Of a stretch of DNA of 64,000 nucleotides, positions 4,817 to 5,872 are shown piece by piece. The stretch comes from Eledone cirrhosa (taxonomy: Eukaryota). The DNA lies in contig OZ024740.1 of NCBI GenBank assembly GCA_964016885.1, positions 115,692,001 through 115,756,000 of the forward strand, given 5' to 3'. The translations under genes were made by a program, and so were the position numbers. The number at the start of each line of letters is the position of its first letter. Position 1 is the first letter of the stretch. Under the pieces are notes generated by a model. The model searched no databases, was not told where the DNA came from, and worked only from the letters and a program-made list of their open reading frames with translations.

Positions 4817-4888
4817 AAAATCCAGGTCTACCAAATAGAGAAAAAGTTTTAAAATACATTAAAAAAATTCGCTGTACTCATTATATGT

Positions 4889-4970
4889 GCCTTTACCGCA
4901 GTTTCAAGTCCCAAAATAAACGGATAATCCAAGCGGATCCTCATTGAGAAGGGAACTATCTTCAGAAGGC
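4889..4970 (-). ncRNA. type I hammerhead ribozyme
   Basis: Minus strand: gcctt-CUGAAGA-u-AGUUCC...GGGACU-u-GAAA-CUGCGG-UA/aaggc; stem I gcctt/aaggc, near-palindromic stem III, GUA site. Confidence 0.8.
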
Positions 4971-5372
4971 TCTTCTCACTCGGAGAATATAAAATTCCCG
5001 AGTTTAAATCAGAAACTGACGCCATACAAAACCATTCCCAGATGAGAGTGAATGATGAAAGAAATAATTCTGTCTGGTGCCGTGTGCAAAGACAAAAGCA
5101 GGGTGGACAGGTCAATGTCCTGCCACTAGAAATAGCAGCAGTCCAAACGGACAAGTGTTATCTCAACCTTAGGGGAGATTAATAATAATAAAGTTTGTGT
5201 TCCTACGTGTAAAAAATACATATAGTGATACAAGTATTATCCAACCGTATGCCAATGTGGTTCTATGGCGGGTTAATAAATTAACAAACCAGAACATATA
5301 AAATCCAGGTCTAGCAAATAGAGAAAAAGTTTTAAAATAGATTTTAAAAAATTCGCTGTACTTACTATATGT

Positions 5373-5454
5373 GCCTTTACAGCGGTTTCAAGTTCCAAAA
5401 TAAACGGATAATCCAAGCGGATCTCCATTGAGAAGGGAACTATCTTCAGAAGGC
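5373..5454 (-). ncRNA. type I hammerhead ribozyme
   Basis: Minus strand: gcctt-CUGAAGA-u-AGUUCC...GGAACU-u-GAAA-CCGCUG-UA/aaggc. Confidence 0.8.
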
Positions 5455-5506
5455 TCTTCTCGCTCGGAGAATATAAAATTCCCGAGTTTAAATCACAAAC
5501 TGAAAA

Positions 5507-5588
5507 GCCTTCCGAAGATAGTTCCCTTCTCAATGGAGATCCGCTCGAATTATCCGTTTATTTTGGAAATTGAAACCGCGGTAAAGGC
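5507..5588 (+). ncRNA. type I hammerhead ribozyme with U4C core change (CCGAAGA)
   Basis: gcctt-CCGAAGA...GAAA-CCGCGG-TA/aaggc; perfect palindromic stem III ACCGCGGT. Confidence 0.7.
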
Positions 5589-5872
5589 ACATATAGTAAG
5601 TACAGCGAATTTTTTTTTATTTATTTTAAAACTTTTTCTCTATTTGCTAGACCTGGATATATATATATATATATATATATATATATATATATATATATAT
5701 ATATATATATATATATATATAGTTAAAAGAATAGAGGTGTAACACACAAGTTATTATATATTGGTAAACGGAATAGAAAATGCTGACAAATTGTTCACAG
5801 TGAAAAATAGTTTAATTAGGAATGAATGAGAATTAGTAATTGTATTGGTTAGTTTTCAGTTTTGGTTTTAAG

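Follow-up and report, generated by a model that had tools for sequence, protein, structure and literature searches.

A non-coding 484-nt unit with predicted minimal hammerheads and a Penelope-like insertion layout in Eledone cirrhosa, a likely retrozyme-like element

Non-LTR retrozymes, their origin from Penelope-like elements (PLEs), the layout of PLE insertions and a model in which RNA circles act as templates are all already published. According to the parts of Cervera & de la Pena 2020 (PMC7229834) available to us, metazoan non-LTR retrozymes are non-coding, low in GC and carry one type I hammerhead per unit, with a cut-to-cut monomer of a few hundred nucleotides. Their hammerheads are canonical, the units measure 150-450 bp and occur as dimers to multimers, and circles have been demonstrated. 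Mobilisation of animal retrozymes by PLEs has been proposed from co-occurrence and trees (PMC7229834; 10.64898/2026.07.22.740005, in the text available of both). The second of these studies, by Li, Clavereau and Pollet, covers 31 vertebrates, 3 insects and 1 coral, and defines elements by TRF arrays of at least two units; in its accessible text, the argument is drawn from co-occurrence and pseudo-LTR (pLTR) trees and the mechanism of mobilisation is left open. Eight of nine Xenopus dimers did not cut (Li 2026, same text).

A PLE insertion is a partial tandem whose 5' end carries a 5'-truncated copy in inverted orientation (Craig 2021, PMC8557442), and the accessible text of Arkhipova 2013 (PMC3846280) describes the same layout together with pLTRs that move unrelated DNA in trans. 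Minimal hammerheads with a palindromic helix III lie in the pLTRs and circles have been proposed as templates (Cervera 2014, PMC4209133, as excerpted); the G10.1-C11.1 pair is conserved in these PLE motifs, which cut poorly in vitro (PMC4209133). Their in vivo role has been called a mystery (PMC7761336). In the one PLE that has been reconstituted, from Anolis, the protein cleaves AT-rich DNA and cDNA synthesis begins at an internal position of the RNA, beyond which further sequence is required; uncut RNA was the main template, and the consulted part of that report describes no reads beginning or ending at the hammerhead site (Frangieh 2024, PMC11167929). Within the literature on octopus and molluscs, with Repbase, Dfam and subscription papers outside the scope, no such element is described beyond mussel retrozymes, and the word 'ribozyme' occurs 0 times in the O. 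vulgaris repeat paper and 0 times in its supplement.

The window analysed here is a 64,000-nt stretch of Eledone cirrhosa contig OZ024740.1, and the insertion lies near its start (Table 1). As in the retrozymes of PMC7229834, so far as its available text allows the comparison, the unit is non-coding, of low GC (37%, against the 45-50% below which retrozymes fall), with a type I hammerhead once per unit as a predicted motif and a monomer of a few hundred nucleotides. It differs from them in its 484 nt, its PLE-type minimal motif with U.U at 10.1/11.1, its extent of 1.41 units and its inverted pLTR. Its size falls inside the 51-972 bp of the Li 2026 elements, which, in the text seen, include minimal hammerheads and have a PLE origin; this copy falls short of their TRF definition of at least two complete units and shows the PLE insertion signature itself.

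Table 1. Parts of the insertion, with positions counted in the window.
Feature	Position	Strand	Remarks
(TA)n target, 3' side of the element	4415..4817	none	tandem-repeat scan
Copy 1, 3' pLTR	4820..5019	-	runs out into (TA)n
Hammerhead 1 (predicted, type I)	4889..4970	-	predicted cut after 4894
Predicted cut-to-cut monomer	4894..5377	-	484 nt, 37% GC
Predicted hairpin directly 5' of hammerhead 1	4977..5003	-	within a deep block; organism B matches here too (4962-5017)
Non-coding body of the unit	5020..5302	-	283 nt; without ORF or Pfam match; covered in every bin
Middle block, three small predicted hairpins	5105..5152	-	local depth peak; structure support mixed
Predicted stem-loop	5260..5295	-	starts ~8 nt beyond the pLTR 3' end; deepest family region
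Copy 2, 5'-truncated upstream copy (direct 5' pLTR)	5303..5503	-	
Hammerhead 2 (predicted, layout of hammerhead 1)	5373..5454	-	predicted cut after 5378
Copy 3, inverted and more strongly truncated pLTR	5502..5658	+	
(TA)n target, far flank	5657..5721	none	tandem-repeat scan

Read in the RNA direction, the parts follow one another as copy 3 (5502-5658), copy 2 (5503-5303), body (5302-5020), copy 1 (5019-4820) and (TA)n. The direct copies are spaced by 484 nt and are 90% identical, the inverted arms (5303-5459 and 5502-5658) are 94% identical, and copies 2 and 3 are joined head-to-head with a 2-nt overlap. A first-pass annotation of this DNA had described a hammerhead-to-hammerhead unit followed by an inverted third copy. 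The 484-nt spacing stands, but the direct part covers only 684 nt, or 1.41 units, and is thus a partial tandem; TRF found AT arrays only in the window and no 484-nt array. The third copy is indeed inverted, but since the RNA strand is minus it lies at the 5' end and precedes the unit, and its hammerhead core is broken. All copies stop 74-75 nt beyond the predicted cut. Copies 1 and 3, which had been read as ending at the same point, do so nearly but not exactly (CCTGGAT-TTT-(AT)n in copy 1, CCTGGAT-(AT)n in copy 3), and the terminus of copy 1 is ambiguous by up to about 7 nt, TTTTATAT being common to the terminus and the start of the body.

A check for a target-site duplication met (TA)n on both flanks. 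The direct pLTR derived from a partial tandem and the inverted 5'-truncated copy at the 5' end form the signature of PLE insertion, and inverted copy, partial tandem and unit together are the textbook PLE layout. Similarity to the insertions of endonuclease-bearing (EN+) PLEs, as they appear in the accessible parts of PMC8557442, PMC3846280 and PMC4209133, extends to the palindromic helix III hammerhead in the pLTR and to the microsatellite target; unlike them, the element has no RT/GIY-YIG ORF between its pLTRs and lacks the optional tail of 30-40 bp at one end, the two ends differing by about 3-7 nt. Because this layout is standard for PLE insertions, the inverted third copy marks a PLE as the mover and not circles specifically: the annotation had taken it as a sign of copying by a PLE RT from a tandem or circular template, of which the PLE part agrees with the layout and the circular template does not follow from it.

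Type I hammerhead cores were located at 4965 and 5449 on the minus strand with a purpose-built descriptor, which places H17 at 4894 and 5378 and hence the predicted cut sites 484 nt apart. A stricter descriptor gave four matches in the window (4965, 5449, 13257 and a weak one at 59984), and on 20 block shuffles it gave 0 matches in 19 and 1 in the remaining one, so that the annotated pair of same-strand hammerheads about 484 nt apart was recovered. The motif consists of a 5-bp stem I, CUGAAGA, a stem II region of 53 nt between the core boxes, GAAA, an 8-nt near-palindromic stem III and a UA cut site. Hammerhead 1 has stem I GCCUU/AAGGC, CUGAAGA, U.U at the base of a long stem II, GAAA and stem III ACUGCGGU, with a damaged palindrome; stem III of hammerhead 2 is ACCGCUGU, its palindrome likewise damaged at this locus. 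A third motif, in copy 3 (5512 on the plus strand, H17 at 5583), has an intact palindrome and a broken core, CCGAAGA (U4>C).

The extra nucleotide after A9 (CUGAAGAU), the short helix I and the palindromic helix III as family state are traits of PLE minimal hammerheads. The G10.1-C11.1 pair is absent, all three window copies having U-A...U-U ahead of GAAA, and the canonical hammerhead of Cervera 2020, with this pair and a 4-bp helix II making loop contacts, is not what is found here. None of the hammerheads was recovered by Rfam at the gathering threshold; at E<=5 it returned two sub-threshold chance matches only, neither of them these motifs. Motif scans of metagenome, viral and genome contig collections gave 0 matches. 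In folding models, the double-hammerhead fold costs 7.3 kcal/mol above the MFE (13.3 for two monomers) and can still form with one U.U mismatch. Folded as a circle, the monomer has an MFE of -119.5 kcal/mol (z -3.5 relative to 60 shuffles), which indicates structure and not circularity.

No coding was found between the hammerheads, as the annotation had stated: the longest ATG ORF is 58 aa, and 0 of 12 stop-free frames (>=25 aa, overlapping 5010-5310) match Pfam. A tblastn search of the unit against the remainder of the window, where several PLE ORFs are located, gave nothing better than E 0.26, and unit and PLE ORFs within the window have no DNA or protein similarity. Without an ORF, the element is not an autonomous PLE. 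A tRNA-derived SINE was considered and rejected, as ARAGORN returned 0 and the unit contains neither an A box (<=1 mismatch allowed) nor an exact B box. The same applies to an intron, suggested by a 55-nt GT...AG stretch after the cut site: variant 5311 destroys its AG (51% of X1 depth, 28% of X5 reads), and the donor has been lost from copy 1. Non-coding PLE derivatives with pLTRs and head-to-tail copies are also described among the Chlamys elements, e.g. MRC1 (Craig 2021, PMC8557442, available text); unlike the present unit, those belong to green algae and to a clade without canonical hammerheads, and their partners are known.

Four public runs were compared with the reference interval 4960-5503, which spans one pLTR and both junctions in 29 bins. 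Two of them, X1 and X2, derive from one sample, which may be the window's own source; X5 consists of raw, RAD-biased RAD reads from a separate study with the same species label as X1 and X2; X4 comes from a different organism, B, with 6 contigs matched. All 29 bins were covered in each of X1 (1921 contigs), X2 (1792 contigs) and X5 (2166 raw reads). Summed contig depth in X1 ranged from 2,299 to 107,564, a value that is not a copy number, compared with 4.75-20 for the single X1/X2 contigs listed. The bins over the junction of pLTR end and body start (5283-5320) are among the deepest (37,093-68,324 in X1), and the deepest of all, 5245-5301, lie just within the body. Median depths in X5 are alike for body and pLTR (246 and 283, RAD-biased). 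Because the junction bins are deep, pLTR followed by body is the family's normal state. The share of contigs running on unlike the reference was 0 in X1 and X2, where contigs are short (average ~85 nt).

One contig of organism B, 513 nt long, aligns with 4962-5017 and 5234-5345; the two blocks are separated by 213 letters (216 at this locus), and 132 further letters precede 4962. By length, this amounts to one full turn of ~482-483 nt plus the word overlap, a reading based on one contig and on lengths, not on letters; it suggests a similar period with a diverged interior. At least five distinct opposite-strand joints mark inversions at other positions in other copies. Taken together, body coverage throughout the family, junction depth and the period in organism B bear out the annotated non-autonomous, non-coding unit of PLE type, and these sequence data indicate that it is a family rather than a fragment of a coding PLE. 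A long coding master element that is rare may still exist, given contigs of ~85 nt on average and a listing of 21 out of 454 loose-end rows and 40 out of 210 variant rows.

Several observations concern diversity within the family. Among the 21 of 454 loose-end rows listed, the largest interior groups in X5 away from the cut sites are at 5149 (118 reads) and 5234 (131 reads), with a clear and a weak likeness to the reference by eye, respectively; their sequences fit a diverged subfamily. Read ends in X5 were rejected as biological ends, as this is a RAD DNA run and four of the seven places listed lie at AATT in the reference. An abundant sister subfamily with loose ends before 4962 is represented by 338 reads in X5 and also occurs in X1, X2 and X4; its core is CUGACGA then G, with a different stem II, nearer to the canonical motif. 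Two X1 contigs depart from the unit at 5009, upstream of the hairpin (82% agreement, median of 53 nt of other letters), a possible lead to the partner element or to another subfamily. Among the inversion joints listed, four of five have breakpoints 245-263 nt apart (~half a unit) and the fifth 59, compared with 44 at this locus, a spacing that may reflect listing bias.

Signs of constraint on the RNA are partial. Among the 40 of 210 variants listed, the sole hammerhead-core variant is N7 (5445), the free position, and the family letter at 5381 (98% of X1 depth, 91% of X5 reads) restores the palindrome. In the predicted hairpin 5260-5295, the family letter at 5288 converts U.G to C-G and the common variants 5270 and 5286 are unpaired; variant 5264 breaks a pair in the MFE model, where a bulge could accommodate it. 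Variants 5143 and 5150 may compensate each other, but are unphased. Four common variants that do not fall in the hammerhead core (5151, 5264, 5439 and 5441) disrupt pairing in local MFE models, and partner changes may lie outside the 40 of 210 listed. The modelled support for RNA structure is thus partial.

These data bear on several other readings of the locus. The annotation itself had named one of them, in which 5010-5300 is merely the UTR of a longer coding PLE; the copies would then be 5'-truncated tails of such an element, with 5020-5302 as 3' UTR and the 484-nt spacing accidental at this locus. Most PLE copies are 5'-truncated and lie in partial tandems with an inverted copy (Craig 2021, PMC8557442, accessible text), the window has two such hammerhead stubs (13257 and 45071) besides several PLE ORFs, and two X1 contigs leave at 5009 among the 21 of 454 loose-end rows listed. 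This is hard to reconcile with a junction among the deepest bins, which is therefore not locus-specific, with a body found family-wide, with a share running on unlike the reference of 0 in X1 and X2 (within the limit of short contigs), with the equal period and diverged interior in organism B and with the lack of a coding remnant, and we regard it as improbable. We likewise consider it unlikely, if a little less so, that a hammerhead satellite was born from a PLE end and amplified chiefly at the DNA level by unequal crossing over, leaving this locus as a stray insertion. Arrays would account equally well for the very high depth, for a junction no shallower than the pLTR and for the one-turn contig of organism B, and local amplification is described in the part of Li et al. 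2026 (10.64898/2026.07.22.740005) consulted; yet this copy amounts to 1.41 units, lies in (TA)n and has its 5' copy inverted, TRF found no array, and at least five other inversion junctions and several diverged subfamilies with alternating conserved and variable blocks point to repeated RNA-mediated insertion.

More serious, though still doubtful, is the reading in which the hammerhead is vestigial or only a protein-binding fold and the family spreads purely from uncut transcripts, never through unit-length RNA. It overlaps with the uncut-tandem version of the mechanism set out below and differs by denying a catalytic role. U.U stands in place of G10.1-C11.1, insertion in the Anolis system is independent of hammerhead activity (PMC11167929, in part) and minimal motifs are weakly active in vitro (PMC4209133, in part); against it, the core varies at N7 only among the 40 of 210 variants listed, the palindrome is the family state, and the Anolis motif does cut with its protein present, as the available text of PMC11167929 reports. 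As for an assembly artefact, either a fold-back or a collapsed repeat, the position between long (TA)n tracts and the fact that no listed contig spans the whole stretch might raise suspicion, but three copies 6-9% apart with private changes and a layout that agrees with known PLE insertions make it highly improbable.

The explanation we consider probable is that the locus holds one old insertion of a 484-nt element that is present in many copies, codes for no protein and carries a predicted minimal hammerhead. The element is likely a non-autonomous, retrozyme-like derivative of a PLE, which a PLE RT/GIY-YIG protein would copy in trans into (TA)n. PLE RT and GIY-YIG ORFs are present in the same window as the unit; the supplement text of Craig 2021, as far as available, gave no motif match for a partner element. 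By analogy with PMC11167929, in the part seen, the protein would bind the stem-loop 5260-5295 as a putative RT-binding or initiation signal. It would nick (TA)n, and cDNA would start inside the RNA ~75 nt 3' of the hammerhead cut. The RT would copy one full unit and then 200 nt into a second, giving the direct pLTR, and a second priming event would add the inverted 157-nt copy. In Anolis Poseidon PAc (PMC11167929, accessible text), cDNA starts at +111-118 and the cut is at +26 (~85-92 nt), similar to the 74-75 nt to the shared end here; PAc needs sequence beyond the start, and here the deepest block and the hairpin begin just past the end. Unlike the present unit, PAc is autonomous, and its hammerhead is dispensable for insertion in vitro.

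Under this explanation, the template would have to exceed one unit because, on a linear monomer after cutting, no more than 75 nt separate the start site from the 5' end, and such a monomer would yield only ~75 nt of cDNA. A read-through transcript of 1.41 units would have no signal at its 3' end because the hairpin begins beyond the copy end. Three sources would hence remain for insertions longer than a unit: a circle, a longer tandem transcript or a template jump. In our judgement, and within this explanation, a ligated circle is slightly favoured, at about even chances, and would be simplest if the family consists mostly of partial tandems. An uncut tandem transcript is somewhat less probable; it has in vitro support by analogy, since hammerhead mutants still inserted in the Anolis system. 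A template jump would be the least expected of the three.

It is a tentative proposal, and one that we lean against, that the element is a widespread invertebrate PLE parasite replicating via a ~484-nt hammerhead-made RNA circle. In the circle, the site at which the RT starts would be joined to the binding hairpin, which is missing from the 3' end of the insertion itself, and a 1.4-unit genomic copy could thereby regenerate more-than-unit insertions with direct and inverted pLTRs. If true, this would provide a natural minimal system in which PLE pseudo-LTRs arise from rolling reverse transcription and would tie minimal PLE hammerheads to retrozyme circles. The questions addressed are the in vivo job of minimal PLE hammerheads and the enzyme that moves animal retrozymes. 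A short, abundant, non-coding unit with the PLE insertion signature constitutes structural evidence for PLE mobilisation and, because cis signals are all that the unit must keep, a compact substrate for the circle-versus-tandem question. Its value is that of a good test case; it introduces no new principle.

The present copy appears to be old. Its three pLTR copies differ pairwise by 6.4-9.0%, with 7, 1 and 5 private changes (p=0.12 for equal ages), and have minority letters in common at the equivalents of 5306, 5423, 4970 and 4975. Shared minority letters together with private changes fit one old insertion, although a shared subfamily would look alike. Judged from its sequence, this locus is unlikely to be a good source of monomers because both direct palindromes are damaged and because a transcript reading through from upstream would include copy 3 in antisense, whose 94% complementarity to copy 2 could sequester hammerhead 2; monomer release is thus a matter for younger copies.

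Other elements in the window include two further hammerhead families. At 13023-13453 lies a hammerhead-bearing PLE stub of a different family, with its core at 13257 (plus) and 131-nt inverted arms (92%). Its stem III is palindromic and its stem II has U.U at the base, as in the unit, so that U.U may be a recurring variant in this genome. The third family (44963-45281, core at 45071 on the minus strand) has 93-nt inverted arms (97%) and adjoins (TA)n. Located 1.3 kb from the unit and on the same strand, a 783-aa stop-free PLE frame (6980-9331, minus) encodes an RT, with a weak Pfam match, and GIY-YIG. It has 491 relatives at E<=1e-50 (best 58%) and no sequence in common with the unit; loci related to this neighbouring PLE ORF were absent from the genome and viral contig collections. 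Its CxxxxCxxC linker presumably indicates the Neptune type. The window is PLE-dense, with further broken PLE-like RT/GIY-YIG frames at 10239-12281, 20721-22587 and 28263-31789 (all minus). By eye, we also recognised Ty3/Gypsy-like pol frames (37334-40272, plus; RT, RNase H and integrase), a small heat-shock-like ORF (49591-50106, plus) and a C2H2 zinc-finger array (61595-62824, plus); the last two, like the microsatellites and the repeat named next, would suggest a cephalopod host. The window carries a heavy microsatellite load and a repeat at 581-711 and 1120-1251 that we take to be an octopus SINE.
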